DNA of 60,777 nt, counting the filler, from Hausera hauseri (taxonomy: Eukaryota), in assembly GCA_046269625.1 (NCBI GenBank). It is 11 parts of 11 records of this genome, joined end to end, with 100 filler letters (N's around TTAATTAATTAA, not from the genome) between each part and the next. Parts side by side here need not be neighbours in the genome. Positions count along the whole stretch, not along the records: positions 53,721 to 60,777 come from JBJURY010040777.1; 10 more parts are not named here. One strand, given 5' to 3'. Below the pieces are notes generated by a model. That model did no database searches, was not told the DNA's origin, and saw nothing but the letters and a program-made list of their open reading frames with translations. Every line of letters begins with the position of its first letter. Positions within the stretch are counted from its first letter, which is position 1. The position numbers were made by a program, and so were the translations under genes. This document shows positions 3,401 through 60,777 of the stretch, in pieces.

Positions 3401-3724
3401 TGATAAAGCTGAGGGTGACAATTCGTATAATTCACCATCCACTACTCTTTTCCGAGTAGTTGACGATTTTCTCCTCCAGCTTTTCGCCGACGTCGGTAAT
3501 AAAATCATTCCATAAGGTACAGCTCGATGTGACAGATACCATTGTTTCGTGTCACCTTCAATATTTTCAAACTCTGCAAGTGCATAATATTGCACTTTGC
3601 AGTGTTGGTGTTGATGTTGGAATTTTTCCACTTCTAATTCCACCCGGTTGCGCACATTTTGCGGAAAATATCTCAATTGCGCTGTTGTTGTTGTTTTCGA
3701 CGACATATTCGCTTTTATATCCAC
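432..3724 (-). pseudogene. Polinton/Maverick protein-primed family B DNA polymerase (pPolB), broken by stops and frameshifts
   Basis: Consecutive minus-strand ORF pieces carry YADIEA (exo I), CYLC..DHDH (endonuclease VII-like insert), FHNFRGYDCH, RFLDSWQFL, KGIFPY, IRGGMTF, YIDINNLYGWALSQ, KLKNNSLYGKT and GETDS (YxDTDS-like). Confidence 0.92.
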
Positions 3725-3735
3725 GTACGATCTGT

Positions 3736-3961
3736 TCAGATAGTACTTGATTGTAATGTCGGGTTATTCCTGTTGTATCTGCTCCTCTTTCTGCTGTTGC
3801 TGTTCCCGCTGTTGCTCTTTTTCTTCTTGCAGCTCGGTACCGGTTCTGATGTATTTGTCCAGACTTGTTGATGCCTTACGTTTTCTACTAGTTGTTGTTG
3901 TTGTTGCTGTTGTTGAAGGGATGCTGCTGCTGCTGCCGCTGCCAATTTTTGTTGATTTCAT
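3736..3961 (-). repeat. Low-complexity CAA/CAG triplet tract (poly-Q/T/S small ORF upstream of pPolB)
   Basis: gttgttgttg / ctgctgctg runs at ~3885-3945; a related low-complexity stretch precedes the second pPolB copy (21250-21400). Confidence 0.5.
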
Positions 3962-9863: not shown

Positions 9864-10950
9864 ATGAACGTGTATAGTTGATGATAATATCGGATTGCTG
9901 CAAAAAGAATCCATTGAAGCTGAGACGGAAATTAGTTGGTGACGATTCTCGTTGTAGAGCCTCGAACAAATGTGCGATGGTTGCTGTTTTATGTACATAA
10001 TATGTATATTCGCGTTTATTTCCTAGTGAAAGGGTTAAAAAAATGAAATTTTTTAATATGTCAGGTGTATAGCGCGGTGCACAAAACACGGGTATGCCCA
10101 CAATATCCGAGTTGTAAAGGCTTGTTTTTCTGACCGGGGAGATCATTGATTTGAGCTGCGATGATTTATTATTGGCGTTGCGACAAAGATGGAGAAATTG
10201 ACTATTGTCAAAATATATGGTGACCAATTCATCGGGTGAACTTTTATATGTTAAAGAATTGGTACATTCATTAACATATGTATAAAAGAAATATGGTATA
10301 TTAATTGATTGAGAGTCATTTAATTGGGATTTGGTGTCGGAACCAATGAATAGGCGTAAACGTAAAGTTATTGATAGTGGTAAAAATGTGAACAGGAAGG
10401 ACGATCTTAGGTAGGGATAGTGAAGATGGTATCTGTTCATGATCAATAAGTAGCATTTTAAGTTGATGCGATGAGTCAAATTTATAACAAAATCTGATAT
10501 TGTTGTTTTAGTATGTGTGCGGTGTGTGTGTATATGTTTGTCTTGAAAGAAAAGATAGATAAAGGAAAAGACATGTTTATTTTGTAGAGTAAGAGAAGTG
10601 CAGAAGAAGGTATGTTCAGGTTTGGAGGTATAGTGCGCCACCGGAGGCACGACCGCGCACCAACGATAACTGTTGACCTTTCGAGTAACTGTATTGACGT
10701 TTTTTTCTTCTACGGAATTTCGATACAATTGGTTTATCATATTGTTTTTAAAAACGATTGGAAAATAAGTTAAGAAATGAATGTTCGTTTTCTGTTGATA
10801 ATATACCTTTAAGTCAAATGTTCTCTCCTTCATCCATCGAAAAAAATGTAAAAGTAAGTAATTCCTATATTTCTCCGAATGCGTGTCGATATTTACGCCT
10901 TCATTCAATCGATGGAAATCTTTTATATTACTGAACTTTAAACGTTTCAC
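9864..10950 (-). CDS. Continuation of the mosaic ORF: SCAP-like start followed by two ubiquitin-like domains; runs off the contig end
   Basis: INVKRLKF continues SCAP SIDIRRMEL across a 1-nt shift. FIYLFFQDK..TTISDF..TLRLRLFIG and FIFLTLSLGNKREYTYYVHKTATIAHLFEALQRESSPTNFRLSFNGFFL resemble beta-grasp Ubl domains. Confidence 0.5.
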
Positions 10951-10951
10951 A

Positions 10952-13381: not shown

Positions 13382-15184
13382 CTCTAATGACAGTGTTTGT
13401 TCTGCATGAGTTTCTTCAATGTAAGTTGATTCTGTGAAATTATCGGTTTTCTCTCACAAAATTGTCATATTCTTCCTTGTGTTTTGCAAAATATCCCAAT
13501 ATTTCCGAAGACTGATCATCAATCATTTGTAGACTTGATTTTGAAAAGTTTTCCGTCGGTGGAATAAAATGCATATTGGCATTGAAATCGGAATCATTAT
13601 TATCTGACACCATTGTTAATTTAGGAATATATCCACATAACATTGTTAATTCAGAATAAAGGAATAATTCCAAATGCAGTAAATAAAGTTTATTTTCCAA
13701 ATCAAAAAATCCAATCAATTAAAATCTATTATGTACATTGATATTTTTCTATACATTTATTTACATATAAATATACAAATATATAGTCTGAGGATTTTGA
13801 TAGATATTTTTCTTTTAACAGAACATCAATTGTGGTACTGATAATAATAATAATTCGTTATTCTCGATATTTTCGTTAACAACCGGTACGTCTTTTCTTC
13901 TTATATCTTTTGCGTGATGACTCAACTAAATTTCCTTCCCCTGGTGGCAATTCATTGTCACTTTCTTTTAGAAGCTTTAGTATTTTAATAACGTTTCTTT
14001 TCCAACTTGTTTGTCACATTAGAATCGATAATTTCCTTGCACTGGATAGAAATATCAAACAATCAGCAGCAGTGTCTTATAGATTTATAACACGATTTTC
14101 TCTTGGCCACACTGTATTATCGATTGAGGAAATACAACAAAAATATCGGCAGGAGTAATACACTGGGAGGATGAGTCATATCAGAATGTATGTCAGATCC
14201 ATTCAGTTGTAGAAGATTTACTTTTGACAGTCTACAAATATATTTCATTGTCTTGAAAACATCATAATGAAATGGCCATAAACTTTGGAGTCAGTTGATA
14301 AATGAGTTTTTATTTCCACTTGTCTTAGTACCTCCATGTTTGCAGTAAAATATGATGACAATACCATTCAATTATGAACAATCAATTCCGATTTATCGTG
14401 GTAGCACCCGAATCCTCCGCAGCACAATTATGTTTTTGTGTGAAGATATTTTCTGACATGTCAGTAATATTTTATTTTATATAGATATTTTCAAACAACT
14501 ATTGTTCATTTCGTTTACATGATTGTTGTGCTTTAATTTTTCTATGTTGTTTACTTTTGAACGTTCAAAATGGTCATATATTTTACTATTTGGATATCAA
14601 CTGTACTATTATTATTATTTATACTGTCATTTATTTTAGATTTATTTGATTTTGTACAAATTTGGTTGAATCCTGTAAATATGTTTTCTTTTTTGCAGTG
14701 TAAAATTTTAATAGAAAATCTAAATAAATGATGTGTGCAGTAATATATCATCGCTGGCGATTTGTGTACATCTGTCATTTTCGCCCAATGGTACCAAAAA
14801 AACTTTCACAGTTAAGATATTAATCCGTGATGTTTGAGTTTCAGAATTATAATTTGTATATTTTGTATTTGCTTCTTCAATTACAAAGTTTCGCCTTCCT
14901 TTTTTTATTATTTCTCATTTTTAAATAACATTTTGAGTAGCGGAAGGTAGAACGGTTTGAACACGGATCTCACGACGGTTAGATATGTGTCCAATCCCCG
15001 TTTTTCTAATAGCACAACAGCCAGAACTCATCGTATGGCCACTGCTTCGGGAAAGTAGCATTTATTCATCAGCTTTCAAATCCTCCCACCTCTTCAGTTT
15101 TTTGTTTAAAAGATAAGAGTATTCTACGCTGGTGAAAGGTGAATATCCTGTATTGTTTGGCAAGTTAAAACTACACACGAAATG

Positions 15185-15519: not shown

Positions 15520-18500
15520 ACCTATAAGGCCAGAAATAGAGATAGAGGTGAATGGATACCCAATGACGGCTTTGCTAGGCACTGGGTCTACAATTACAAT
15601 AATGGGAAGGAGCCAATTGCCGAAGGAGTTAAAAAGGAAATTACGAAGACCGACAACTACCTTAGTAAATGTAGGAGCATTCATCACATAAGAAGAAATC
15701 AAGATGGTCTTAGATGATAAAATTAAGATCGGTGAACAGATTGTAAAACATACTATAAGGATAGCCGATAATCTGACTAACGAGATTTTAATTGGATGTG
15801 ATATCCTAAACCAATTGGAAAATGTTTATATAGATGTGAGAATATGTCAACTGAAGACGTTTGGCGAAGACAAAGGAATGGTCTCAATAACAAGAGATAT
15901 TATAATCCCACCGCAATCCGAGATAGTAGTACCCGGAAAAATAGAAAGTCAAGTATTACCAAAGGTTATTTACTTCGAACCTTTCCCACAAGTCATGGAA
16001 AAGTATGAAATTCTAATCGCCCCCCATGTACATAGGGTAAGGAATGGAAAGATCCATTTGCGGATTTGTAATACGGCAAGAAAAGAAAGGCGATTAGGGA
16101 AGAATATGAGATTGGGAGAAGTAACGACCAGCTAGGAAGTAATAAAACAAGAAATATGTTCTACAATTTCAGACGCAGATAAAATAGAAAAATTAATGAT
16201 AGAGAAGTTAAAGAAGGAACCAAACGAAAATAGAGAAAAAGATAAAATTATCAATATCAATTGGCATAAAAAGCTACAAAAATGCGAAATTTTAACTAAG
16301 AAAGAGAAGCGTATGCTAATTGAGCTATTAGAAAAGAATAACAATCGATTTGCACAAAATGATTATGACTTGGGTAAAATGAATATAATACAACATATCA
16401 TTAAGTTGAAGGATGGACAAGACAAACCAATAAAAAAGACCATATCGGCTAGCATATTATAAAAAACAAACAAGAAAAATAATAAAAGAAATAATGGAAA
16501 ACAAGATAATTCGACCAAGTTGTTCCCCATGGACGGATCCAGTAGTGATGGTTAAGAAGAAAGATGGCACTATGAGATTTTGTACAGACTACAAGGCATT
16601 AAACGAAATAACAGAGACGGATACATATCCTTTACCAAGAATTGACAAGATATTAGATAAATTACATGGATCGACAATATTCTCAACGATAGATTTACAA
16701 AAAGGTTATTAGCAAGTGGAGGTGAAAGAAGTGCATAAACCAAAGACAGCCTTCTCAATTAGAGAAGGGTTATGGGAATTTAATAGGATGCCATTTGGAT
16801 TAAAGAATGGACAGCCAACGTTTCAGAGAGGAACAAAACTTCTGCTGCTAGACGCTCTACATGCCATGGTATATATTTATAATGTAATAATAGAATCATC
16901 AAATTTTCAACAATATCTAAGGGATCTGCAAGATCTCTTTGATAGATGCGAAGTAATGGGCCTAAAGATAAACCCAAAGAAATGTTCATTTGCTCAAGCG
17001 GAAGTAGATTGCCTCGGACATAGGGTAGATAGATATGGCGTAAAATCTCAAGACAGGCTTTTATGAAAAATAAGAGACTTTCCAAAGCCAGGTACAGTCA
17101 AAGAATTACGTTAAGTTTTAGGTTTGGCAAACTATTACCAAAAATTTATAAAGGATTTCAGAAAAATTGCGAAACCTTTGTACGAACTATTACGTGAAGA
17201 CCTAGACAAAGTTATTTGGACAAACGAATGCCAAAAAGCTTTCGAATATTTAAAGGATAGACTGTTAACTGCTCCTATTTTAATCTATCCTGATATGACC
17301 AAACCATTCATTTTCGCAACAGACGCAAGCGATTATGGAGTAGGAGCAGTGTTATCACAAAAGGGTGAAGACGGCAAAGAACATCCAGTAGCGTATGTTT
17401 CACGGAAACGTAATAAACACAAGAGGAAATATGCAGTAATTGAAAAAGAATTGTTGGCAGTAATATTCGCCTTGGAGGTATTAACACCCTATATTAGTGA
17501 AAATAAACCTCGTGTAATCTATACAGACCATAGACCGCTTCAATGGTTAAAACAGCATGATAATCCTAATAGCAGACTATTACGATGGGCTCTGAAGTTA
17601 CAACCCTATACATTGAATTTCCAGTATAAACCAGGAACACGAAACGCAAATGCCGATTACCTATCCAGAATACCCAGTAAGTCAGAAACAGAAAAAGCAA
17701 TAGTCGCAGCCGTATAGAGCATGGATGGATCTGTAGAGAAAATTAAGGCAAACCAAAATGAAGACGTTGAAATAAGTGCCATTAGAAAATACATAAAAGA
17801 CAAATCCATACCAGCTAATAAAGAACTAACTCGCCATTTGGCCCGATTCAGTGAAGCTTATGAAGAGAAAGAAGGATTTTTATACTTCGTTCATCAAAAC
17901 GGACCCACTTTAGTAATTGATAAGAAAAATAGAACAGTTGTGTTAACTCAATACCACGATGGACTACCTGGCGGACACCAATCAGCAAATAAAACTCTTA
18001 GTAAAATGAAACGGAAATACTTTTGGCCGACTATAACGAAAGATGTACAAGACTGGTGCGGTAGTTGTAAATAATGTGCTACCCGAAAGAACACGGGAAC
18101 AAAATACAAAGCACCCATCAAAGTATGGGACAATACCCCAGCACCATTTGGGTTTACCTCAATAGATATAACAGGACCACTACCGTTAACCCGAAATGGA
18201 AACCGATATATCTTAGTCTTTATTGACTATTTCACTAGATGGGTTGTTGCCCTATCTATGGCTGATATGAAGGCAGATACAATTGCTGAGAAATTAGTGG
18301 AAAATATAGTATTCAATTATGGAGCCCCAAAAATCCTCTTAACTGATCAAGCGTCTAATTTAACTGGAACCGTAATGCAGTCCATATAAGACATTCTGAA
18401 GATATTAAAGTTACGATCCACACCAGGACACCCGGAAAATAATGGAATGGTTGAAATATATATTGGAGATTTAAAAGGGAAAGTACAAACGGTGGTAAAC

Positions 18501-21413: not shown

Positions 21414-23740
21414 ATGGACATAAATGCGAACATGTCGGCGACAACAACAACGCAATTGAGACATGCTCCGCATAATGTGCGCAACCAGTTAGAATCCGAA
21501 GTGGAGAAAATCAAACAACATCAACACCACCACCGCAAAGTGCAATATTATTCACTTTCAGAATTTGAAAACGTGCAAGGTGACAGGAAACAGTGGTACC
21601 TGTCACATTGAACCGAACCGTATTCTGACAATTTTATTGCCGATGTAGGCGAAAAGCTCGAGGAGGAAATCGCCACCTACGCGGAAAAGGGTAGTGGCTG
21701 GCGAATTACAAAACTAGTCACTCTTGGCTTTATCGTAACAAAGTCGAGTGACATAATTTACCTGTCCGGACGATCATTCATACCGACACCCACAGCTCTG
21801 CAGCATTCACATGCAGTAGTGAATGTAAAAAATACTGACGACGAATACTGTTTTCTTTGCAGTATTCTGGTGGTAATAAAATATGACAAAGTGGACAGAC
21901 ATAGTGTAAATCGTCCAAATCAGTATCGGCAGTATTTTTCCTAATTGGATTTAGATGAATGCTGGATGCCGATGAAACTAAAAACCATTCCGGCTTTTAA
22001 ACGGCGTAATCCAACACAGGCAATAAATGTGTTTCGGTACAATACAATAATAGAAATATCGGCAAACGAAGGGATATATAAAAACCCCCATGTGGACATA
22101 ATTTATCGAAGTCCGAACGCAAGTGGAGACCCAATATATTTGTTACTTTTGGAGCAAGAAGAAAAGTTCCATTACATGGCAGTAACCAATTTTGACCGAC
22201 TATTAAACATGGACTACCATCAGTTTGTCCAAAAGCATATACAATGTAAATGGTGTCTTGTATGTCTGCATGGTTTCAGGTTAAAAACAACATGGGAGAA
22301 ACATGTGACGCTATGCAAGTGAAATTCAACTGGAACAACCATGTACGTTATACCATTCAAAAAAGAGCTCCGATTCAGTGACTAGTCGAAAACGAACAGT
22401 CCGGCATATGTGGTATATTCCGATATTGAGGAAATTCTATCACGGCACAACGTGTAAGATCAAAAACACGTTCCAATCGCCGTTGGTATGTTGGTTGTCC
22501 CAATAAAAGCGGGCGGTCAGCCGCAGTATTACGCCTTTCACGGCTGGAACTTTACGTGATTTCCTGCAGCGTTTGGAAACGATAGTGGAAATGGAAATCA
22601 AGCCTTGATATTGCAATAATTCTACTAGACCATTGATTTGGACAGATGAATATGAAGTGCTGATGTTCGCTGCGACCGATGAATGCTAGCTATGCCACAA
22701 AATATTACCGTTCGACGCACACGAACGTCTTGTACTGGACCATGATCATTTCACCGATCGATATTTGGGAGAAGCATGAAATTTGTAAAATTGGCAAGGC
22801 GTGCGCGGCAATTCCTGCCGGTGTTTTTTTTTTATAATTTTCGATGTTATTATTGTCATCATATACNNNNNNNNNNGTCAACACTCATAAACAGGTTCCA
22901 GGTACGCTTCCTTAATTTGTTGCAATTTCTCAATGAGTCTCTAGCAAAGCTCGTAAATGGCTTGCCGGATGTGCCGATAACATTGACGGAATTCTCCACA
23001 CATATTGCGTGTAGCAAAGGCATATTCCCGTATGACTTTGGAACATCATATGAGAGACTCCGAACAACAGAGGAATTACCACCGCGATGGACACGTATCG
23101 CAGAGAATGAATACCGGAAAGCATAGAGGTGTTGGACAGAACTGGGCTGCAGAAGCATGTTGGAGTACATGCTTCAGTATCTAAAACTGGACGTGTATTT
23201 ATTAACCGATGTGTTCCAAGCATTTCGAACAAAAGCCTTGGCTGGAGGTTGGCTGGAGCCACTCAACATTTATTCCATACCCGGAATGAGTTGGACGTTA
23301 GCTGTAAAGACACTGGATCGAGACATTGAGCTAATGCAAGACCCGGAAATGTATCGGCTGTTTGTCATCAAGTATCAGGTCAGTGCTACCGCCGTTACCA
23401 CATCGCTGCGGTATATTGATATTAATAACCTGTACGGCTGGGCGCTTTCGCAACCCTTGCCGTACGGTTCATTCGAATGGGTTGTCAACAGATAAGATCT
23501 TGACGACATAATGGTCAACGTACCACGAGAAGACATGGCAAGCTCAGTCAGATACCTAATGGAAGTCGATCTCGTGGTACCAGATGAAGTGCACGACGTT
23601 TTGGACGATTTATCGGTCGCACCATTTAACCAATATCCGCCAGGCTTAAAAGTGAAGAAACTGTTTATGACACATGAATCGAAGCTGAATTATGTGGTTC
23701 ATTGGCATCTGATACAGTTCATGCAGCTCAGTGTACGCGT
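21414..23740 (+). pseudogene. Second Polinton pPolB copy, 3'-truncated
   Basis: Colinear with 432-3724: MDINANMS.., KGSGW, INVFRY, CLVCLHGF, YSDIE, KGIFPYDF, YLKLDVYLLTDVF, YIDINNLYGWALSQPLP; ends after YVVHWHLIQ. Confidence 0.9.
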
Positions 23741-24446
23741 TTTAGTAACCAGTTGCAACGTTGAAACGGAGCAGCTATTATAAATCCAAAATAAAAAGGG
23801 CTAATGAACAACGCTTTATTATTTATAATTCAAAAAATTATCTATAAATTATTAAAAATCAATTTTGGTACAATATATACAATAATATTACAAGGTTCTT
23901 CTATTTTTCTGAAACACATAGACACACGTTGTGAATAGAATGATGAAAAGTTCATTTGGTTTTGGAACAATTTTTGATGATGCAACAAAAATGATAATCC
24001 TTTATCGCTTGATTTAATTGACGATCCTGAAAGAGTCACTTGTTGGAAAGATTGTTATCTCCGCTTGAAGTTGAATTTTCGCCTCTGAGGAAACAAGTTG
24101 TGCCCGCGACCGCGGCGTCATATGACCCAGTGGCCAGATTAAGACTGTAAAGAGAAGAATAAATGGAGATTGTAGTAGGAAAAAGAACTTGTACTCAATG
24201 GGTTTTGGTCCGTGTTAGTCTTTGGACTCCATCTATGAACGTCTCCCTGCTGTAAGTACTACATGTCACTTGGTGTGACCTGTTAGATGTTACTGGGGCT
24301 TGTGGAGTTTTTTGAGGTAGAGATGCTGTGGATTTTGTGGTGTTCTGGGAGGATGCCTCATGATGATGTGAAAGTAAAGAAGAAGCTGAAAAAAGAAAAG
24401 GATCACGTGAAGTAGACGAAACTGGAGATGGCAGTGAATTAAGAGA

Positions 24447-24888
24447 TAGTAGGGGAAAAATGCGGGTTCTCTCTCACCTGGGGTGGGGGTAATTGATAAA
24501 TCAATTTTGCACATGTGCCAATCGATAGTGCACACAGTACGTGTACTATCGGTCGGTAGTGTGCTAGGCGACGTTGCCGCAAAGCACTGTTGTTATGCGC
24601 ATTTTTGCACATTTCACAAATCAATCGTTGCACAGTGCAGTATTGATCAAATCGATCGGAACAACGTGCTTATCGGTAGTATACATCAGTGCGCATCGAT
24701 TGGTGCATAGTGCAGATGTGCAGCACACGTAAAAATGTGCAAAAATCAATAATATCGGATTTACTATATTCACAATATTGATTATTGGAGCACGGCACCG
24801 CGTGCAATCGGAAGCACACATGATGCACTGTGTGAATGTGCAGTTAGAATTTAAATATATTGATTGGTTTTCGAATAATTGCCAACTG
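24447..24888 (+). repeat. Interspersed non-coding repeat rich in ATCGAT/GTGCAC palindromes
   Basis: Colinear with 59584-60030 (both start agtaggg(g)aaaaaatg and contain tgtgcagttagaatttaa..tattgattggtttt.gaataattgccaactg). Confidence 0.8.
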
Positions 24889-29514: not shown

Positions 29515-29794
29515 AACTGGTTAAAGCCGTCCAGGTCAACCCTACCTGACGGCGTCCTGTTTAATATAAAGTAAAGAGAGCCTAATAAACCGTAAGGCCA
29601 AGTAAATATAAGCCCACAGGCAACAGTTGACCCGACACATTACCTATAGGTTAGTGATAGGTAGGACTGTTACCTCTGATTGCATCTAGCCCACAAGTCT
29701 TGACAGTCAACTGAGTGCCTATTTTTGTTCTTTCCACTAATTTGAATAAAGCATTATTAAGCCTCTCCCAACTCAAATTGGTGTAGATTGAACA
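29515..29794 (+). repeat. 3' part of an LTR (solo or 3' LTR) of the tRNA-His-primed Gypsy family
   Basis: Colinear with 39622-39913 (gccgtccaggtcaa, acacattacctatagg.tagtgataggtagga, ends gattgaaca); AATAAA present; no PBS after it. Confidence 0.8.
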
Positions 29795-30152
29795 AAAACG
29801 CTTTTAACGGAATAACCATTTAGGAGATTTTCTAACAAGTTTCCATTTTTTTCTGATATTGAATTCAACGATCCATTGGATGAAATATCACTACTGAGAC
29901 TGGACGCATCCTTATTTATATTGTCTTCTATTCCAGATTTTATAGACAATGCTTCAGCTCCAAGTTTCAAAATGAACATATTTCCAACTATAAAAATAGT
30001 TCTGTAGTTCTGAAATTCCTGAATGTGTTTCACCGATATTTAGAAACTAGTTTAATTAGCCAATGAAATGTAAAGTACAGACTTGTAATACGAAGGTTTA
30101 TATCAAATACTCATAAACAGTCAGTAATGCACTTTTAACTATTTGTCTGTCA

Positions 30153-30515
30153 CTACCAAATGCATGTTGACCAAAGACAAATAGAATATTTGTCTGTCTG
30201 TTTAATATAAATGTCGTTGTGATACCAACTGATCTCTGGAACTGGATGTCCAACAACAATTGCTTTAAATGTTGCGGTTCCTTTCAATGCAACTGTTGAG
30301 TTTTGTGGCTTTTTAATAAAATTCTGGAGTTCTAAATAAGGACCTGTACTGTCTAAACTTTCTGAATGCACTAATACGCTTACATTTTTGTGCATTAAGC
30401 ACTTCCAAATGGATCTTTCACGATAACACAATATTTGCCTTCATCATCATGGAATACTTCATGAATATAGAGAGTAGCCACATTTTCATCTCGGAATAAC
30501 TTGTAATCCTTTGAC
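30153..30515 (-). pseudogene. Host Ig I-set domain gene fragment (titin/twitchin-like)
   Basis: ATLYIHEVFHDDEGKYCVIVKDPFGSA and FIKKPQNSTVALKGTATFKAIVVGHPVPEISWYHN. Confidence 0.8.
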
Positions 30516-30519
30516 ACTT

Positions 30520-30640
30520 TAAGGCGGAAAATCGGGACCCGCCTATGCGTCCGACGCGTCGGCAGCGCAAAATCCGGCCGTGCACAACCGAATGGGCCGG
30601 AGGGCAAAGATCGACGTGGGTGCCACATCACCCCCCCCCC
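30520..30640 (-). repeat. Polypurine tract (G10, 30631-30640) and start of the 3' LTR (TGATGTGG from 30630)
   Basis: Reverse complement reads GGGGGGGGGG|TGATGTGGCA; the related element's LTR ends in ACATCA (58131-58136). Confidence 0.75.
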
Positions 30641-30703
30641 GTGGCAAAGTTAGAACTATAAAGAATAAAAGAAAGAGAGAAAAAAAGCGCAAAACAAAGT
30701 GTG

Positions 30704-33700
30704 TTAGTTGAGTTTAGTATGTATAAGGCGTTGAATATCTTCGACTGATTTTTCCCTGCTATATTGACTGAATGTGACTCTGCGTGTTGTGTGTTTTTGT
30801 GCAATGTTTTTGTCTGCAGAAATTGAGGTTGGGGAAAAATTGGTAGATTTTGGTGTAGGTGTTATGTCGTGCGAAGATGAGTCAGAAGGTGAAGAAGGTG
30901 AATAAGGAAGAGTGATTGTTGAAGACGGAGGGTTAAAAGTATTGAAAAGAGTGTTAGAAGACGAAGGAGTGATGAAAGGTGTAGTGGTGGATAAAGAAAG
31001 AAAGGAAAAAGTTGGAGTAGAGATTGGGTTTGTGTTGAATAAAAGAGTGGAAGAGGAAGATGAAACAGAAGGAGTGGTAACGATAAAAAGAGTGGTAGGA
31101 ATAGAAGGAGGAAGTGTAGAAAATGACGTAGTAATACTAGGCACGGGAAGGGAAGGTGGAAATGGTGTAGCAATAGATGTAGTAATAGCAGGGAGTAGGG
31201 CAGTAAGAAAAGAAGTTGAAGTGTCGGTTGGTATGGTGTCGTCGACAAAGAAAGCGGGCTTTAGGTTAGTAATGTGTACTGTGAAGTCTTTGCTATCTTT
31301 AGTGGTAATGGCGTTATGCAAGTGGAGCTGTATAAGTTTATAGGGCCCCAGGTACCGTGGCTGGAAACCGCAAGGAGCTTGATTCTTCAGCCATACGAAT
31401 TTAGCCGTGCACAAATCTTCAGGTAAGTTTTATCTTTGTGAAGTATCTTTCAGAACGAATCTCTGCTGACCTCGACAAAGTGATTTTGCGCCGCTCATAT
31501 TGTCTCATCTGTGGGATTGTCATCTAGGGCGGTTAGTTCGAATAATGATCGGACAGGAGCTTCGAATAAGGCTTCAGTAGGTGAGCATCCTGTAGAAGTG
31601 GACGGAGCGTTACGCCAGCCGAGCAGAACGAACGGAAGAAGATTGGTCCAACTACTGTTGGACTCTGCAAGAATGCGTAGTGACGTTTTCAATGTTCCGT
31701 GGTAACGTTCTAAGAGGCCATTAGATTGGGAATGATAAGGTGTAGTATGAATATGGTGGATCCGCAATCGGTTAACGACGGATTTGAACAGGTTGGACTC
31801 AAACTATGGACAATGGTGCGTGATGACGAAGCGAGGTAATCCAAACCTGCTAATCCATGTGCGAATGAAAACGTCAGCTATGGTGTCAGTGTTTGTGCTC
31901 CACAGATGGATGGCTTCTGGCCTTCACGAGGAACGGTCCATCATGGTGAGGATAAATTGATGACCGTTTTCTGGAGGAAGAGGAACAACGATGTCGATAT
32001 GCACGAACTCGAAGCGCGATGTGCAGGGAAAGTGGAATAGTGGTGGCTTTAAATGCTTAGTTGTTTTGTACTTTTGGCATGCCACACACTCCTTAACCCA
32101 TGCCTGCACATCAGAACGCATTGACGTCTATATTACTTGTCGATGAAGTAGATGAAAAGTGGCGTTAGCACCAGGATGGTGTAGTAAATGCTCATGGTGA
32201 AATACTTGCTTTACAATGAAGATGCTAAAATTTTTACCGATTGTTTTAATTTGGAGGTGTCCAAAGCCATGCCGTCAACGATTGTGCAAGATTTAAAAGA
32301 CTTAAGCATGTCTTGAGGTGGATGGTTCTGTTGAAGTTCTTGCGTAAAAATCGGAGAAAAACTAATTGAACTAACCGACCTCGATAAAAAATCAGCAACG
32401 AAATTTCTAACTCTGTTTATATGTTTAGTATCGAAGTTAAATGTCGATAAGTATGATATTTGTCGTTCTTGGCGTGTGGAAGGATGTTTCATAGCCATGA
32501 TGTTAAGTAAAGGCTTGTGATCAGTTTGTAGAGTGAAACGATGAGCGACAAGTAAATGTGAAAAGTGCTTTAAAGAGAGAACGATTGTTAATAGTTCTCA
32601 ATCAAACGTGGAATATCTGGTTTCAGTTGCGGTTAGCTTGCGGGAGAAAAATTCTAAAGGTTGGATTTTACTCTTGTAGATTTGGTGGATTACAGCGCCT
32701 ACCGAAGTGGTTGACGTGTCAGTGGTGAGGATGAGCTCTGCATCAGGCTTGGGAAAGGTTAGAATATTTACTGTTTTGATGCCTTCGCGTAGCTTGTTGA
32801 ATTTGTCAATTAGTTCAGGTATCCACTGGATTGGTTGGTTTTTTTGCCGCCGCTTAGGTGTGCGAATGGTGTTGTCAATTCCAAACAATATGGTACGTAT
32901 TTATGTATCAAGTGGAGTGTGCCAAGGAAGCTGCGCATTTCACTGGTCGTACGAGGCTATTGGATGTTTTTAAAAGCTTCGACTCGGTCTGATTGGGAAG
33001 AGTGACCGTCTGGTGTAATAACGTGGCCTAAAAAGTTTATGCGCTTTTTGAAAAATTGGCATTTGTCAAAAATGATTTGTAGATTATGATGGTTGAGACG
33101 TTGAAATATTTCTCAAAGGTGTTCTTCACGTTGTTTGGCCGAAGATGAAACGACTAGAATGTCGTCGATATAATAGAAAGAATTGAATCGATGTGCCGCT
33201 GAAAAGTTTGTGCGGCATTCCGCCAAACCAGATGGCATAAATAGATATTCATAAAGGCCAAAAGGAGTAGTTACTGCGGTTTTTCCTATATCTTCGGGTG
33301 CTACCGGTATTTGATGGTATGCTTTAGCTAAATCAATGGTTGAATAGATGGTGGTTGAATTGAGATGATGCAGGATATCCTTGATGAGTGGTAAAGGATA
33401 CGCGTCCATGATAGTCAAGTTGTTTAACTGTCGGTAGTCACCGCATGGTCTAAAAGTACCTTCCTTTTTTGTACAACGTGTAACGGTGGTGACCAAGGAG
33501 ATTTGGAACGGCGTACTATGCCGGAACGTTCTAGCTCGAGAAATTCGGTTTCTACGGCCTGTCTACGGCGAGGTGACAAAGGCCGTACCTTTTGGCTTAT
33601 TAAACGTTGATGCTTTGTGACTATATGGTGTAAAGTGCTGTTGGCTGGAGTAAAAGGTACCATCTTTTTTAAGTACGCGTGGACATGACTTGTTGATAAA

Positions 33701-34400
33701 TTGCTGTAACGCTGTATGTAGCTGTGAGAAATTCAGTGAAAGTAGTGGAACGATTTGAGTGGTTGCGGATGCAGTGTGTGACTTGTTAGGTGGTGTGCAG
33801 TCAAGTGGTATTTGGTGTAAGATGCTTGAATTGAAAATGGTGTTGTATAAAGTTACTTCGCTGAATGGAACAACGTTGGTGGCAGTACCACAATTATCGA
33901 CATTGAACTTCGATCGAATGTCAATATTATTATTTAAAAATTTACGAATATAATTATTATGAAAATTCGAATTAATCGTTGATTTTTTAAGATTAATTTC
34001 CGCATTCCGATCGACTGCGCGATAGTCGAAACGCTATTTACATGTCCAGAAATGTCGCCAACGGTGCCTTTCCTCAAACATTGCTGACTGCAGTCGACCA
34101 GTAAGTTATAATGTGATAGAAAGTTAGATACGAGAATTGCCGTCTGGACGTTAGCGACTGTGAACGTCCAGTAGAAGGGTGAAAGAAAATTCGGCAGAAT
34201 GAAAGATGGTTTAGTCGTACCAGAAATGTGCAGCGGTTGGCCTGAAGCAGTATATAAAGGATTAAGTTTAAATGAAGAATCTTGTGTAGGAAAGGTTTGC
34301 GGTAATAGAGAATTTGCTGCACCTGTATCGATGAGAAAGTCAACAGATTGTGTTGAAGGGGCAGTGATTGCAGCCTTTAGAGTAAAGAATGCAAAAGAGA
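30704..34400 (-). pseudogene. pol: pol (PR-RT-RH-IN) with a long Ser/Thr/Pro-rich C-terminal tail
   Basis: ORF pieces 33934-34605, 33424-33663, 33113-33496, 32598-32888, 32211-32498, 31924-32121, 31495-31767 and 30704-31414. Confidence 0.9.
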
Positions 34401-34529
34401 CGTGTCGGCATGAAGAGTGTGAATTAGTGCAATCGCCAGAGTTTGCAATAACTGCTGGTGGCGAAGTTAGTTTTTTGGAAAGGTAAACTGGGACGACTGT
34501 GAGAAGTGAAGGCAGTACGTTCGTCGTTC

Positions 34530-35562
34530 GTACTGGGTTTGAAGATGCAGCCGGGGATACATTTATATGCTTGATTTTTGAATCTTGCATGGTAAATACA
34601 GACAACGGTGTCGGAGGAAAAATTTTTATTATAGAACTTGCAGCCTAGGCAGCACTTTTGAGCATTAGTGTTAAATCTGCTGTGGTAATAGCAGATTGAC
34701 GAACGTGCAGGCGATGGTGAGCGGTTTTATGACGCAGAACGGGTACAATATGCGGAAAAACCCCCTCAGCGGGACAGTGACAACTCGTTTAGTTTGTTAT
34801 TGATATTATTAATTGTTGCTTGTAGTGCAATGCTTTCAGCACGTAGCTGGTTGAGTTGTTGTTCTATGGATGTAGTATTTGATTGTATGTCGTTAGATGC
34901 GACTGCTTCTGAAACTATTAGTTGAGAATTTGTGTGTAGGACATCGTATGTCCTATCGGCCAATTCGGTTAATTTATCAAGCGGCGTGGAGTCTCCCACC
35001 ACGGTAAGAAGGAACCGTATTTGGATATGTAGGGCATTCAGAAAATAATGGCGTAGAAGATCTGGGTTATGCTGCTTAGTTACTCCAAGAGTACGCAAGT
35101 GTGCTAACGAGGTGCGTAGGAAGTCACTGGGTTCTTGTGTTCCCAGTCCATTTACATTAAAGAAACGTTGCATTATGGAGACAATTGAAGGTTCGGTCTG
35201 TTTTAAGAGAACGTCAAATAATTGGATATAAGGAACAGGGTGTTAAAAATGTCTAGCAGGTTATGTATTGATGCTTTTATTGAGTTGGGGCGAAGATAGA
35301 ATAAGCTGTGAGCTTTAGATAAGGAGTCTGTGATACCATTAGACTGTAGCCAGAGTTGATGGAAGTGAGGCCACGTTTTACTGGATTTTTCATTATCTGT
35401 GAAGTAATCTATGCAATGTGTATAAGTATAAACTGGGTTTTTGTTGGAAGAATTTGCGTCGGTAAAAATAGGTGTATGATTTGGTCTGGTGTAGTAGAGA
35501 ATGGTTATTGGCTTTTTTGTAGTGGTTGTATTCGTGGTGTCAGTGATTGGTGGAGAGTTCAT
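34530..35562 (-). pseudogene. gag: gag with two tandem CHCC zinc knuckles
   Basis: GLGTQEPSDFLR..LLRHYFLNAL..LDKLTELADR; CYYHSRFNTNAQKCCLGC and CIYHARFKNQAYKCIPGC. Confidence 0.8.
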
Positions 35563-35680
35563 TCCACCACGGATACGGAGATGTATGTTGAAGCAAGTGT
35601 AATTTTAAAAGGAAGGTAAAGTTTCACTGAAGTGTATAATAGCACCATTTAGAGTGAGACAGAAGTCTGAAGAACCAATG
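35563..35680 (-). pseudogene. C-terminal half of a ubiquitin-like domain in frame with gag
   Basis: SSDFCLTLNGAIIHFSETLPSF*NYTCFNIHLRIRGG|MNS (cf. ubiquitin QRLIFAGKQL...TLHLVLRLRGG). Confidence 0.7.
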
Positions 35681-35689
35681 TCCTCATCA

Positions 35690-35810
35690 AAATCCACATC
35701 ATCCTCATCACGAAACAGAAATACATTAATTGACAAATGTGGATTCTGCCTCTTAAATTTGCCTGTATTGCATATTTTCATTGGCATATCTTCCAAAGAA
35801 TATTTCAGCT
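35690..35810 (-). pseudogene. Short Polinton pPolB N-terminal-like fragment
   Basis: DMPMKICNTGKFKRQNPHLSINVFLF resembles WMPMKLKTIPAFKRRNPTQAINVFRY in the 21945 piece. Confidence 0.5.
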
Positions 35811-36391
35811 CGCTTAAATAAGGAGTTAATTGCTGTATAATTGCAGTTTAAAAAGAACGAGATTGACCAAACACTTGAATCTTCACTACACGAATACAGT
35901 TTCTGGCAATCAACAGAAGCAATAATACAGGAATTAGTCAATAAGCAGTTCTCGATCAATCCGTTGTCTTCAAGTTAAATTTAAAAAATTCGTAAGCTCA
36001 CAAGTTTTCACGTTCCTTTATCTTCCATCTGCCTTCTTTATATAGCGTTGGAATCCATCAATTATTTATTTTACAACTGTTTCCATTTCATTTTTTAGCT
36101 CTAGCTTTACCCATTAATAATTCAATTCTAAGCTACATTTACATTCTTGTCTGGCTACAATTTTCATTTAGGAATATAAATAATAAATTGAAATGCTAAT
36201 TTAATATTTATGTTACATGTATACATCTTTATATCGTTCATTGTTATGGCGTTCATTGTGGTATTTCTTCTATTTACAACACAACTATAGAATTTCTCAA
36301 TTTTTACACATTTTTGATTTTAATTCAAATGTGTCTTGTGACCTAGCCATACAACTTCCGCTCACACTTTTTTATGGGTTATAGAAGATTT

Positions 36392-39621: not shown

Positions 39622-39913
39622 GTAAGTTGGTTACACAAGCCGTCCAGGTCAAACCTACCTGACGACATCCAGTATAATAATAAATAAAGAGTGCAAAATA
39701 AACTTTAGGGTCTAGTAAATTGGAAATCAGCCTCTGAAGCCACTCTTACCCAACACATTACCTATAGGATAGTGATAGGTAGGATCTACGCGTCTGTCTT
39801 GCACTGTTTGAAGTATCTGAAATTTGTAAAGAAAGCAACTTTGTTCTTCTCGCTAATTTGATTAATGTCCAATTAATAAGTCTCTCTCAACGCGAATTAG
39901 TGAGGATTGAACA
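39622..39913 (+). repeat. LTR, 3' part (5' boundary uncertain, possibly from ~39310-39480)
   Basis: Homologous to 29515-29794; ends TTGAACA 2 nt before a PBS. Confidence 0.75.
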
Positions 39914-39915
39914 AC

Positions 39916-45776: not shown

Positions 45777-48700
45777 AAAAATAATCTAATTTTTTTGCTC
45801 GTAAAAATTTTTCGTCTTTTTGTTCTGATTTGTATTCTGGAGTTTTCTCCTTTAGCGGTGAAAGTTTTAACGCGATTTTCCTGATTCCATATATATTGCT
45901 CAATGAATTTTCATCGATGCACCATTGGGCGTTAGACGTAGGCGTTAGGACAGCAATCAACGATAAGGCTACTATTATCTGTGCATAAGATACTGGTCTA
46001 GCGGCAATCGACGAGGTCTTGTTTTGTCGCGGTCTTAGATTATAGTGTTTAGCTGGTCTTATATCTGCTTTAACTACTGTTTGGGTTGACACGACTTCCT
46101 CTTTACCGTTTTTGTTAACATAGACCGTGGTCGGTGTTGTGCGGACGATTTCGTATGGTCCTCTTTCGGTACGGGTTAATTTCAAGGATGTACCTTTCTT
46201 CGCGACCGGGTAATGTATATAGATACAATTTCCCTTTTCCAGATCATGGGGCTTGGTCTTTTTGTCATATTGTTTTTTAAATTGTTCCTGGTATTCAAGT
46301 GATAATGTTTTGCAACTTCCCAACACTTTTGCAATCTTGTTTGTAAGACTTTGGCGAAGTTTTGTGCTAGATCCTTGAGGTTTTTTCCGTATGTTGACAT
46401 ATCTAGATCTGTGGGTAAGATTGCTTCTCGTCCGAACATCATAAAGAACGGAGTGAATCCTATTGCTGGATGCGGGGTGGTATTGATTTCGAACTGGGTT
46501 CCTTCTAGGAATTCGTCCCAATCCTTTTGGTCTTTGGCCACTACTGTTGGTAGTATACGAATGACTGTTGCGTCCATTCGATCGACCATTCCATTATATC
46601 AGGGGTGGTACGCGGTAGTGGTTAATCGTTCGATTTCGAATATCTTAGTAATTTTTTCGAATAATTCACTTGTGAAGTTCCTTCCTCTATCCGTTACGAT
46701 TTGTTCTGGTGGTCCGTATCTGCAGATAATTTTCCTTACCACCGCGTCGGCTAAAGTTTCTGCCTTTTGATCTAATAGTGCCACCAGCTCGACGAAATGT
46801 GTTAATCGATCCACGCAGGTCAGAATATATCTGTTATTTTTGTGAGTTTTAGGCAAAGGTCCCACTATATCCATAAACATAGCTTGCATGGGCCTATCTG
46901 GTACGTTTATGAGTTTTAATTCTGCCACGTACCCTTTCGTTTTCCTTTGCTTTGTCTAACAAACTTCGCAAGCACCTACCCAATTCTTTACATCAGTATG
47001 AATGCTTGGCCAATAGTATTTATTTAATATCCTTTCAAAGGTCTTCTTCCAAGACATGTTTCCACCTAAATATGAATTATGTTCGGCTATAAGTATTTCG
47101 ACACGTAATCCTTTTGGAATAACTATTAGTCTTCTCCCTTTTCGTTCGTAATATAGAATATTATCTTTGTTCGATGCGCGATATTTATGTCCGTGTTTCT
47201 GTAGATGCTTCTTTAATTATCGTCCTTTGGGCATTTTGCCGTTTTGTTCGAACTCAACAATTTGCTGAATAACCTTATCTTTAGCTTTTTCTACGGTGAT
47301 TCCGATCGTTTTATCCAGGGTTAGGGTTCTTTGACGTTCAATTATTCGTTCGAGCTGCGTTTCCTTAACTGTGGTAATCCCACTGGTTTTTGTCTTTAAC
47401 CTTGATAGTGCGTCGGCGTCGACATGTTTAGTACCTGGTTTGTATTGGAATTCAATGTTATATAGTGAGATTTCATCGATCCAACGGTTTAATCTACATG
47501 TTGGATTATTAGCTTGTCCCTTCAATGTCGTGACTGCTTTGTGGTCGGTCACTATTATAATCTTTTGTCCATAGACATAGACATTAAAGTATCGTAGTGC
47601 TTCCTTTACGACTAACGTTTCTAATTCAGTAACCGAATAATTCTTTTCAGCTTTTTTAACGAGCGTCCTCCATAGGCTATTAGATGGTCTAGTTCTTCAT
47701 CTTCTCGTTTCTGAGCTAATTCGTATCCTATACCTTCTTTACTTGCATATGTTTTAATGACGAATGGTAGGTTAAAATCAGGGTATGTTAAAACTGGTTT
47801 GCTTGCCAAATCCTCTTCATTTCGTCGAATGCTTTTTGTTCCAATTCCGTCCATCTTCACATAGTTACCTTTTTGAGTAGGCGATATAGTGGTGCGTTAA
47901 TTTTCGAATTATCTGGTACGAAAGGGGCATAATATCCACATATACCTAACCAATGTCTTAACTCTTTTTGATTCTGCGGTTCCATACAATCGGATATTTT
48001 ATTTAGCGGGGAATTATCCGGTTTTGACCCTCCTTCTCCAACTATGTGTCCGAGGTACGATACTGCCTTCTGTGCCCATTTACATTTCTTTGGATTTAGT
48101 TTCAACCCTGCTTGTTCTAGTCGCATGAGTGTATCCTCAATGTCCTTTAAGTGTTCTTCTTCTGTTTTTGATGCTATCATTATATCGTCCAAAATCGCGA
48201 AAGCATAATCAAGTCCTATGAGCATTTTATTCATCGTTCTAGTAAAAATGGCTGGTCCTGTAATGATGCCGAAAGGCATAACATTAAATTCGTATACGCC
48301 ATCGTGTGTTTCAAACGCTGTCTTATATCGATCTTCTTCTTCGATTTCCACTTGCCAGTATTCTGATTGTAAGTCGAGAGTGGTAAACCATTTCACTCCT
48401 GATAATCTGTCTAAAGCTTCATTTACTGACGGTAGGGGAAACGAGTCTTTCACCATCAGCGTGTTTAATACACGATAATCTATACAAAATCGATGTTTTG
48501 TAGTTCCTTTCTTTTTAACCATAAGCATAGGTGAGTATCATGATCGGCAGAATGATCAAATTATATCGGCATTTAACATTCGTTCTACCTCTTTAGTTAT
48601 TTCTGGTCTTAGTGAATGGGGAGATGGGTATCATTTGGACATTTTTTGTTCTTTTAGATCGATTTCATCATTCGAACCGGGTTTCTTCCTTAATGAGATT

Positions 48701-56700: not shown

Positions 56701-58250
56701 ATTGAGATGGTTGTATTATGGTAGAAGCTTTCAACGTGAATACAGCGAAAGAAATTTTTCGCCTATCAAAATGCAAAGAATGGCCGTCGCCAGTGCTTGC
56801 CGTAAACTCTGGCGGTGGAGTTAGTTTTTTGAAAGAGGGGAACTTGAACGGCTGTTAGAAATGTAGCTAACATGTCCGTCGTTTGAATACAGTGTGTTGC
56901 TGTTAAAAGGACAACCTGAGATGCATTTGTGCGCATTATGCCTAAATTTTGCATGGTATATGCAAACAATGTTGTTAGTATGGTACTTCTGGGTGTAAAA
57001 TTTGCACTCAAGATGGCAGAAACAAAACCCCCTATCAAGTGAATGAATTCTCGTTCAGTTTATTGTTGATATTACTTAGTGTTGTTTGCATGGCCGCATT
57101 TTTGGCTCATAGTTGATTTAACTGCTGTTCGAATGTATTGTTGTTGGTAGTAACGGCTACGGAAATGACTGATTGAGTGTGCACATGCAAGACCTCGTAT
57201 ATTTTGTCTGACAATTCAGCCAATTTATCAAGCGTCGTCGGTTCTTCGACGGCGGTAAGTAATGCCCTACTTTGTATTGGCAGTGCGTTCAAGAAGTAGC
57301 GTGGCAAAAGATCGGCATTGTTTTTTAGTTACGCCAAGTGTTTGAAGTTGAGCGAGCGACGTTCTAAGGACATCTGACGGTTTTTGCGTTCCCATAGCAT
57401 TGTCGTTGAAGAACCAATGAATTATGGAGTACACAGATGGTTCGGTAAGCTTTAAAACGGCATTGTAAAGATGTCTGTATGGATCAGGTTGCTGGAAGAT
57501 GTCTAGCAAGTCATGAATGGACGTTTTTACTGTAGTCGGTAAAAGACAAAGTAGGTTATGAGCTTTGGTTAGCGAATCAGTAATACTGTTAGACTGCAGC
57601 CAAGGTTTGTGAAGGCTAAGCCAGGTTTTGGTGGGCTTCTCATGATCGATAAAATATTCTGTGCACTGAAAAGAAGTGTGTTTGGATGACTGGATGGAAG
57701 GTGTATCAGCGGTGAAAGTAGATGGCGTGGTTACAGTCGTTTATTTTTGGTGAACAGTGAAAGGTGATGGTTTAGAGGTAGTTTTGTCAGTAGTGTCAAT
57801 GGTGAACGAAGAATCCATGCCACGACAGATACGAATGTGTACTTGAATAATGATATTTTGGGTTGAAGGAACGAAAAGGTTGTGAAAATTTATAGTAATT
57901 ACAGGAAGGTTGTTGTACGTAAGGTAAAAGTTAGAAATATTAGCATAGTGTAGTACATAACTGTACAAGGAATGCGCGTCGATAAAATACGTTGTATTGA
58001 GTGTGAGTAATTGGCGATTATTTAGGAAGAATAAAAGGGAAGAATTGGTGTTGGCCCTAGTGATGACGCAACGGACCGGACCGTAGCTCCCACTGACATT
58101 GGACAACCGGTTGGGCAGTCGGTCACGCTGTGATGTACTTTCCTCTCACGGAAAACAACACGAAGAAGAAAACAAGAATGACGCTTTATTACCTTATAGC
58201 AAAGCAGAAACCCTAAGCAGAGCGAAATAAACCGGCAAAAAAGAAACATT
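53721..58250 (-). mobile_element. Second CsRn1-like Gypsy copy: LTR end, decayed PBS, Ubl-gag-pol
   Basis: Colinear with 31380-35680: FLIDTGA, MPFGLRN..YTDDIL, HSLHHPG..CVAC, HIYFVGPLP. The LTR contains AATAAA and ends ACATCA at 58131, followed by CAGCGTGACCGAC (possible decayed tRNA-Trp PBS). Confidence 0.88.
57819..58050 (-). pseudogene. Ubiquitin-like domain in frame with gag
   Basis: LLFFLNNRQLLTL...ISNFYLTYNN...IIIQVHIRICRG|MDS; codons TGT CGT GGC are two substitutions from CGT GGT GGC (RGG). Confidence 0.65.
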
Positions 58251-58302
58251 TTATTTTTTTAAACATACTAAAGAAGGAAAAACGTCAGAAACTAAGAATC
58301 CA

Positions 58303-59144
58303 GTGATAATCAAGGAGTCTATCGAACTTGGACAAGAAGTGCAGCCCCCTAGAATTCTAGTTATAACAGAGTATTACAATAATGGCAGGATTAAAGAAGC
58401 CCTATTTTATATCTCTGTAGAGCAAAGAAGAATCGACAACGAAAATACATACGCGCGAGACGGCCCTGATATAGGGGGACATTTGACTCCAGCATTCCGC
58501 TCAAAAATCGAAACTAAGAGACGGACCGTTCCAATGGATACAAATGTCCGGATACAACTAAAAAGCCACCACAAAAATGGGCGTACCAAATTTATACAAC
58601 AATGAGCTGGGGAGAATGGATAATTCTCGTTGAATCTGATGACGCTAAAAGAAGTTCCGTTGACCCGTGGCAAAAGGAATTATACGGCTATCTTTACAGA
58701 GGTACAAGAGAATTAATATTCGAGAGGATTAAGAACGAGTCAAAAGTAGACCTAGATGCTCCTGAAAACAACGAATGTCCCGTGTGTGAAGCTGACCTCC
58801 GTCAAGGCTATGTAATCCTCGGTAACAACAATTGTATCCACAAATATTGTCGTTATTATTTGGAGACCGGAACACTGAAGAACTGGAAGACAACAAGTGC
58901 AGTATGTCGGGCCAAAACTGAAAGTCTCAAGTATCATGCCAGTGGCAAGAATAGCAGGATAGTTGACCTTCTGCCCAGCACCAGCTGCCAACTAAATTTG
59001 AAGCCCCAGAATAATAGAGTAAATCGTGAAGCAAGTTTACGAAGCCGGTTGAACCAGTTACAGCAACATGATAACCGTGGCTGCTCTTCTGACGCAATCG
59101 GCCCATCCGAGGTTGCCATTCAGAGAAGAAGAATATTGTTGTGA
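58303..59144 (+). pseudogene. Intronless ORF pair with a degenerate C3HC4 RING finger
   Basis: CPVC-x13-CIHKYCRYY-x12-SAVC (two ligands lost). Confidence 0.6.
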
Positions 59145-59583
59145 GGATATAACCGAGAATTGAAATTCTAAATTTAAATTAGAAACATTTTTAAATTTTA
59201 AATATTCAACCACGAATTTAATTTAAAAATGTAATATTAAAAGTATAATTTAATTTTGGAATTCCGGAAAATTTGTTTCCAAATGAGTATTTTGAGATAC
59301 AATAAAATTTTTAACAATTGGTGTTACTTTTTAATGAGTAATTACAAACGATCAAATTCCGCTTTAGAGGACATACCACAGGCGGAGATTTCACAAATAT
59401 ATCGAAGCTAGGTGATGATGTGCACGGCGTGGATGCACCCGCGGCCAACAATTGTAAAAAGGCATTCTAGATAGTGCAAGAGTGTAAGACATATACAAAT
59501 ATATAAATCGCAAATTTTAAAATTATATCTAAAGAAATATGACCAAATTATTTAATCAAATAAAAATTTGCAGATTTGACATA

Positions 59584-60480
59584 AGTAGGGAAAAAATGGG
59601 AAGTGTGCCTCACGCCCCGGAAAGTGGGCGCGTCGATAAATCGATAATGCACATGTGCTAATCGATAGTACATACTGAGCACTATCGATCGGTAGCGTTC
59701 TAGGCAACGGTGCCGCTAGGCACCGTTGCTAAGAACATTTTTGCACATTTTACAAGTCGATCGCTGCACAGTTCAGTATTGATCGAATCGATGATAACAA
59801 AGTGCTAATCGATAGTGCACATCAGTTAACATCGATTAGTGCATACTGCAGGTGTGCTGCACATGGGCAAGTGTGCAAAAATTAATAATATCGGATTTTC
59901 GATAATCCCAATGTTGGTGATTTGCATCCAGCATCGGGTGCAATCGAAAGCACACTTGATGCACTGTGTGTATGTGCAGTTAGAATTTAAGTATATTAAT
60001 TGGTTTTTGAATAATTGCCAACTGAGGCAGATTTCCCATAGGCCTTTCTGCTATAAATTGAAAATCAATAATATCAGTATGGCACATATACTAGGGGGTG
60101 CAGTACTTGATGTACTATCGTTCAGTGAAATACACGAGTTAGGTGTGCTCCTGGATACGCTTGTCAAGGCACTTTTCACATTTGTCACTGTGCAGCGTAG
60201 GACTGATGGAATCGATCGGGCTCAAGTACAGGTAGATAGAGCACATTGATATGCACCTTGATATATACTGTGTCGTGCAAAAACACATGTTCAAGTGTGC
60301 AAAAATCAATAATATCGGATTTCCGATATTTTTCATATTGATGATTAGGACATATGACCGGATGGGATCAGTTGAAAACATGGTGCAGTATATGAATGTG
60401 CAGTTAGAATTTAAATTTATCGAGCCGATTTCGAATAATATCGATCCAAAGTGCAACTGGGACAGACTCCCCATAGGCTT
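59584..60480 (+). repeat. ATCGAT/GTGCAC-rich interspersed repeat with an internal ~200-nt duplication
   Basis: 59584-60030 matches 24447-24888; ~60250-60460 is a diverged copy of ~59830-60030. Confidence 0.8.
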
Positions 60481-60777
60481 TTTAGGCCCTAAGGGATCAA
60501 AATTTGATATTATAATTAGCGGGGACAGACACGAAATCGAGTATGGCGATCTCGAATCTCGAGTCAGATATTCGAAATTCCAAAATTTTTTGGCACAAAT
60601 ATCGAATATCGAACTATTCGAAAAATCTAACAACGGCAATCGATTTCACATATATGAAAACCCCCTCATACATAAAAATTATTCCATGAAAATGTACTAC
60701 ATAGATACAAAATCAATATTTCGAATTAAGCAAAATCTGCATTTAAAGCCCAGTGAAGCGGAAATCAATAAATCTAA

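Follow-up and report, generated by a model that had tools for sequence, protein, structure and literature searches.

LTR retrotransposons mature Gag by their own aspartic protease. Among host genes, FUBI-eS30 is an N-terminal fusion of a ubiquitin-like (Ubl) domain ending in di-glycine (GG). In this gene as in SDE2, an N-terminal Ubl ending in GG and a partner unrelated to it share one reading frame, as at the locus described here; both are host genes, not mobile elements. SDE2 is cut by USP5, according to the part of PMC13572447 at hand. Pestiviruses carry a borrowed ubiquitin before NS3, where host C-terminal hydrolases make an authentic N-terminus; in the accessible portions of PMC8310069 and PMC13517609 this is a recent, near-identical host ubiquitin in an RNA virus, whereas here an old, highly diverged Ubl stands before a capsid. 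An engineered ubiquitin-HIV Gag vaccine is also among the nearest precedents (PMC3914991, available in part).

Ubiquitin-related modules are known in gypsy elements as well. The planarian Burro/GYPSM1 elements have a SUMO-like domain (PF11976) in their gypsy polyprotein, located internally between MATH and BCL-2 in a giant polyprotein with an N-terminal CCHC Gag, and the accessible sections of PMC6431247 make no mention of di-glycine processing. This layout is not the one found here, where a CHCC Gag follows the Ubl and gag terminates ahead of pol. LTR elements can also carry host mRNA pieces, sometimes mosaic and in frame, as LTR-mediated retrocopies, for which the available pages of PMC5131818 do not describe a protease-release module that separates the cargo from Gag. 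The Ulp1 and OTU proteases found in transposons (excerpts of PMC2836005) are another subject than Ubl-Gag, and the main text of PMC13524379 contains no ubiquitin, Ubl, SUMO or CsRn1. No report of a natural Ubl-Gag fusion was found in the literature covered, which was seen in part and lies outside Repbase, GyDB and most subscription journals.

The closest mobile elements are those of the CsRn1 clade (CsRn1, PwRn1 and AgCR). The available part of PMC2582038 gives the CX2HX9CX3C (CHCC) Gag motif as the mark of CsRn1-like elements, puts protease, RT and integrase in that order, and describes a slippery heptamer together with different frames for gag and pol. Clade features also include a tRNA-Trp primer site, paired LTRs and a 4-bp target site duplication. 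Judged by its Gag motif and domain order, the family studied here is CsRn1-like. It shares the separate frames and the heptamer, and differs from the clade as described in that same part by adding an N-terminal Ubl-GG and two CHCC motifs.

Two relic copies in the window

The window, i.e. the whole stretch of 60,777 nucleotides of Hausera hauseri DNA that was analysed, consists of contigs chained with N spacers. Copy 2 of the element lies on the contig at 53721-60777 and copy 1 on that at 29515-36391 (Table 1). The two copies show 68% DNA identity over 4378 alignment columns (about 4.4 kb); both are incomplete on their contigs and are dead relics. In pol of copy 2, Pfam recognizes RVT_1 (E 4e-17) and Integrase_H2C2 (E 1e-13), together with a weak RVP match (E 0.04). 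An A-AAA-AAC heptamer is located at the gag end in both copies alike. Two CHCC motifs are present in copy 1 and one intact motif in copy 2. Beyond 58139, 15 sister contigs (run X1) part from copy 2 and depth goes down to about 6.5. The window contains no tRNA gene with which the PBS-like site of copy 2 could be compared.

Table 1. Features of the two copies and of a third Ubl-like segment, with their positions in the window
Feature	Position	Strand	Basis
Copy 2, presumed 5' LTR end, terminal ACATCA	58131..58136	-	sequence; 15 contigs with loose ends at 58139
Copy 2, PBS-like site in decayed form, spanned by the open frame	58115..58130	-	position behind LTR end
Copy 2, open ATG-less frame from LTR end to Ubl	58053..58145	-	frame reading
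Copy 2, ubiquitin-like domain of about 78 codons with decayed di-glycine	57819..58052	-	leader HMM; sister contigs
Copy 2, Gag with DUF7041-like N-part and CHCC, stops and frameshifts	56830..57818	-	PF23055 E 3e-4, below cut-off
Copy 2, pol with protease, RT and integrase, broken, rest cut off by contig end	53721..56829	-	Pfam
Copy 1, C-terminal half of Ubl, ending LRIRGG, one private stop	35563..35677	-	sequence, sister contigs
Copy 1, Polinton-like DNA polymerase scrap replacing N-terminal half of Ubl	35678..35826	-	tblastx, depth
Copy 1, Gag, broken, two CHCC motifs	34476..35562	-	alignment, motif scan
Third Ubl-like segment, cut by contig end, terminal in frame 9864-10980	9864..10062	-	Pfam, Atlas

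The scrap in copy 1 matches the very high-copy Polinton-like polymerase at window positions 3218-3060 and 21966-22076 (tblastx E 2-3e-4). Its summed contig depth is 1e5-2.6e5 versus a few hundred just downstream, and the loose ends of 57, 62 and 71 contigs fall at its borders (35678, 35824 and 35826). The apparent 75-residue unit running from Met to GG is therefore a chimera, and the Met at about 35783 was rejected as initiating a Ubl of 75 residues, the N-terminal half being Polinton-like polymerase. Two decayed copies of a Polinton-like protein-primed polymerase, 73-88% alike, occupy 693-3763 (-) and 21612-23719 (+).

At 58231-59144 (+), two overlapping ORFs of 124 and 208 codons point away from copy 2; the match of the 208-codon ORF to RING is weak (E 0.08), and depth is low (7-22) as far as 58500. 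At 30389-30640 (-), an I-set immunoglobulin piece (Pfam E 4.5e-6) begins about 100 bases behind the G-run of copy 1 and its 3' LTR head, TGATGTGG. Two unclassified dispersed repeats, with copies 67-81% alike, are found at 59578-60482 / 24443-24888 and at 29515-29795 / 39628-39914. Retroelement relics are located at 17115-17717 (+) (RT_RNaseH E 9e-38) and 47857-48537 (-) (RVT_1 E 1e-35), and a motif scan near these two relics revealed no GG-Met leader.

Leader frame in the two copies and their sisters

The initial annotation described an open leader between LTR/PBS and Gag in copy 2. The frame from 58145 to 57744 (-) is indeed open, and what was found of the LTR is its terminal ACATCA only. In agreement with that annotation, the leader contains SNFYLTYNN and ends in VHIRICRG|MDS. 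The Gag Met is at 57818, in frame; the leader's counterpart in copy 1 has SDFCLTLNG and LRIRGG|MNS, with the Met at 35562 and one in-frame stop in the leader, and the M(D/N)S..TT..K following the junction is common to both copies. No in-frame ATG is present in the leader of copy 2. The 99 codons from its PBS-like site to the Gag Met stay stop-free in 2.3% of 5000 dinucleotide shuffles, which is by itself modest evidence.

The use of a second copy as support stands for the last 24 leader codons, in which 8, 17 and 7 bases are identical between the copies at codon positions 1, 2 and 3, respectively. This pattern is typical of coding DNA (Fisher p=0.0016, codon-shuffle p=5e-5) and was obtained on an ungapped block picked after viewing the alignment. 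Copy 1 keeps only about 38 Ubl codons; because the Polinton-like scrap truncates it, the comparison from copy to copy concerns the C-terminal half of the Ubl only. DNA similarity between the leaders reaches z 5.6 over the last 60 nt and is not significant over nt 61-120 (z 0.2); at the protein level, the similarity has p=0.04. In the Gag core, 40, 46 and 29 of 56 bases are identical at codon positions 1, 2 and 3. A conserved segment between the primer site and the Ubl was considered and rejected, copy 2 giving p>0.05 against all five relatives compared.

Sister copies were taken from one run, X1, which may be the window's own source; 709 of its contigs align to copy 2 and 5607 to copy 1. The leader-Gag junction is bridged by five of the eight copy 2 sister pieces listed, each with 30-40 differences. 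The decayed VHIRICRG had been regarded as two point changes away from IRIRGG, and the sister contigs carry the state of copy 1 at both motif codons where copy 2 departs from it, 27 and 22 contigs siding with copy 1 (depth 470.5/470.5 and 391.5/467.8). The stop in the copy 1 leader is likewise private to that copy, 33 contigs differing from it.

The variant sites listed are 40 of 232 for copy 2 and 40 of 87 for copy 1, and variant counts are therefore partial. In the copy 1 leader, four of the five shared polymorphisms listed are synonymous (binomial p 0.045, third positions), and no indel is found among the variants listed for copy 1. The 16 variants listed in the copy 2 leader, distributed 6/5/5 over codon positions, are nearly fixed differences, i.e. 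decay private to copy 2, and are no test of selection. Two indels are listed in the Ubl of copy 2, in one contig each; the segment before it has one 9-base insertion and four entries of equal depth totalling 9 bases. Over the GG-Met junction of copy 1, two bins (35543-35596) have a summed depth of about 3e4 versus about 1.5e3 on either side; a few high-depth contigs share just this stretch and may come from other subfamilies that conserve the motif.

Protein relatives and the predicted ubiquitin fold

A profile built from pieces of the window and compared with 1.84 billion protein representatives gave four matches (E 2e-14 to 7e-5), to which cluster members from ENA and JGI/IMG added three, for a set of seven proteins, all with an open frame. 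In all four clusters and all seven members, a leader ending in RLLGG, RLCGG or KAYGG precedes the same CHCC Gag. Each relative has a single GG site, which the first conserved Gag cysteine follows at a distance of 18-37 residues, and a GG is expected by chance within 60 residues at 0.02-0.08 per protein. Among these relatives, P0006 was retrieved on Gag alone and the best-matching stretch of P0005 is Gag; P0006 and P0008 start inside the leader. Two CHCC motifs are found in six of the seven relatives and one in P0004. Identity is 34-56% in the Gag core and mostly 16-37% in the leaders, one pair of which gives no alignment.

Scored against 1218 six-frame segments, an HMM of four relatives' leaders places the copy 2 leader at the top (E 5e-5), with a score reached by none of 2000 shuffles, in a comparison that is partly circular, two of the leaders having come from a profile containing copy 2. 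The next segments are copy 1 (E 0.11), the third Ubl-like segment (E 0.18) and an unrelated segment (E 0.21). When only the two most distant leaders go into the HMM, copy 2 is not singled out, 120 of 2000 shuffles scoring as high. Word-based protein searches recovered none of 431 candidates with copy 2, none of 7996 among longer proteins with alignment A3, and one of 7993 with alignment A4, which is P0005 itself. No related loci were found in metagenome contigs or viral contigs, and an Atlas search with the copy 2 leader returned no usable match.

The proposal that the element passes the Ubl on as part of itself was borne out, sister contigs bridging leader and Gag and all four independent protein clusters having Ubl-GG-Gag. 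Copies lacking the leader and leaders diverging independently of the frame, named beforehand as counter-evidence, were looked for and not found. The Ubl-GG-Gag architecture is very probably heritable.

The leader of the intact relative P0005 is predicted to be a ubiquitin-fold domain. In the model of this protein (nine aligned sequences, mean pLDDT 60), residues 16-90 follow the strand-strand-helix-strand-strand-strand order of ubiquitin, before a linker without order, a capsid made of helices and, last, one long helix. Foldseek returned ubiquitin or Ubl chains in 42 of 47 rows (probability 1.00, best E 2.2e-3, TM about 0.7), with no row at E 0.001 or better. With VIA, residues 7-99 account for 45 of 50 rows (best Z 8.8, rmsd 2.2, 71 aligned), including UBL4A (Z 8.6, rmsd 3.0, 80 aligned), and the other five are capsids (MLV, Copia, PEG10 and dArc), of which MLV is the best (Z 9.9, rmsd 2.6, 80 aligned). 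The copy 2 leader has no Pfam match; its own model (pLDDT 61) leaves the last strand unformed and gave no ubiquitin match in fold searches, its best Z being 3.9 to unrelated chains.

At the sequence level, none of the seven relatives' leaders is above the Pfam cut-off for PF00240 or PF11976 (best 17.4 bits versus 23.8). A leader profile compared with PDB sequences gave ubiquitin-fold proteins, ELMO1 counted as one of them, in seven of nine matches, all non-significant (E above 0.1), with SDE2/FUBI-family matches at E 1.2 and 1.9. In a further leader profile, SDE2 (E 0.47) and eS30 (E 0.49) are the top two of three matches, again non-significant. The match to SDE2 or FUBI being non-significant, an origin from either is a lead only. 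Searches of PDB sequences with single leader sequences found nothing, and a three-sequence profile retrieved two T-cell receptor chains only.

Host-gene pieces also occur ahead of the Ubl. In P0004 and P0007, Rrp44/DIS3 and CNOT1 pieces, Ubl, GG and Gag are encoded in one frame of about 1000 aa. In the window, 10952-13453 (-) holds an 833-codon intronless mosaic ORF with LRR, Na/H exchanger, KIF9 and sterol-sensing pieces; a long frame at 9864-10980 (-) overlaps it and crosses a PBS-like site near 10660. The third Ubl-like segment of the window matches Rad60-SLD (E 0.004) and ubiquitin (E 0.004), both below the Pfam cut-off, and has Atlas leads of 0.81-0.85.

Probable release of Gag by a host deubiquitinase and competing readings

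In this CsRn1-like Ty3/gypsy family, Gag shares its reading frame with a predicted ubiquitin-fold domain that precedes it and ends in di-glycine. Translation would run through the leader, a host deubiquitinase would presumably cut after GG, and this cut would release Gag with a defined N-terminus; more speculatively, it would leave Gag indifferent to the upstream translation product, host-gene pieces included. By analogy with known Ubl fusions, the reading that a host deubiquitinase cuts after the Ubl-GG and so frees Gag is given a probability of about 0.7. In three of the four clusters, no Met lies between GG and capsid, the first one standing 101-262 residues past GG, inside or beyond the capsid, and an AUG-started capsid is therefore obtained only via the Ubl. 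Copies 1 and 2 and P0003 have a Met behind the motif, from which Gag could be started with no Ubl attached. Judged by the N-degron residue classes, conservation of a destabilising residue after GG was unsupported; the residues found there vary (M, S, N and G), which makes a conserved degron unlikely.

It is rather unlikely that the released Ubl, rather than the new end of Gag, is what matters, as a modifier or decoy acting on the host ubiquitin system (E1, deubiquitinases or proteasome receptors). E1 enzymes use a free C-terminal GG, and flatworm Burro elements have several ubiquitin-related modules (accessible sections of PMC6431247). The strong divergence of the leaders, however, suits a cleavage tag better than a surface binding a conserved host partner, and the element showed no E1, E2 or E3. 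Such a role is compatible with cleavage by a host deubiquitinase and not exclusive of it. Slightly less probable is a Ubl that remains attached to Gag, where it would recruit the proteasome or trafficking factors that bind ubiquitin (ESCRT). Budding of foamy virus is promoted when ubiquitin is fused to the C-terminus of its Gag (PMC2958808, seen in part), and P0005 has a low-complexity linker (pLDDT under 50) between Ubl and capsid, which would fit this possibility. The GG lies, nevertheless, exactly at the domain end in all four clusters, which a domain that is not cleaved would presumably not need, and no env was seen on reading copy 1.

The least probable reading is that of an untranslated or neutral A/T/C-rich leader, or a one-off host capture, with the motif arising by chance, or else a cut by the element's own protease. 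A neutral leader would agree with the state of copy 2, which has neither an ATG nor an intact motif there and whose open frame has a p of only 0.023, and host pieces are freely captured, as in P0004 and P0007. Neutrality is largely refuted, however, by the second-position conservation and synonymous sister variation, and by the same architecture in four of four distant clusters, three of them with no Met behind GG; the predicted ubiquitin fold also speaks against this reading.

Cleavage by a host deubiquitinase can be extended to a more tentative possibility, in which a captured SDE2/FUBI-type Ubl would serve as a release linker: translation would start in exchangeable host-gene pieces at the LTR and cross the primer site and the Ubl, and the deubiquitinase would then free Gag. 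The pieces in P0004 and P0007, the ATG-less frame over the primer site of copy 2 and the mosaic ORF upstream of the third Ubl-like segment fit such an arrangement, as may the I-set piece behind the 3' LTR head of copy 1.

If Gag is freed by a host deubiquitinase, the ubiquitin system of the host would make the first cut in the capsid precursor of a retroelement lineage; the host would gain a control point, and a simple assay would be possible. The Ubl-GG-Gag arrangement may also explain the tolerance of long in-frame host-gene mosaics ahead of Gag. If the Ubl is indeed a release linker, the element could carry and translate arbitrary mosaics of host proteins, its capsid remaining unharmed.
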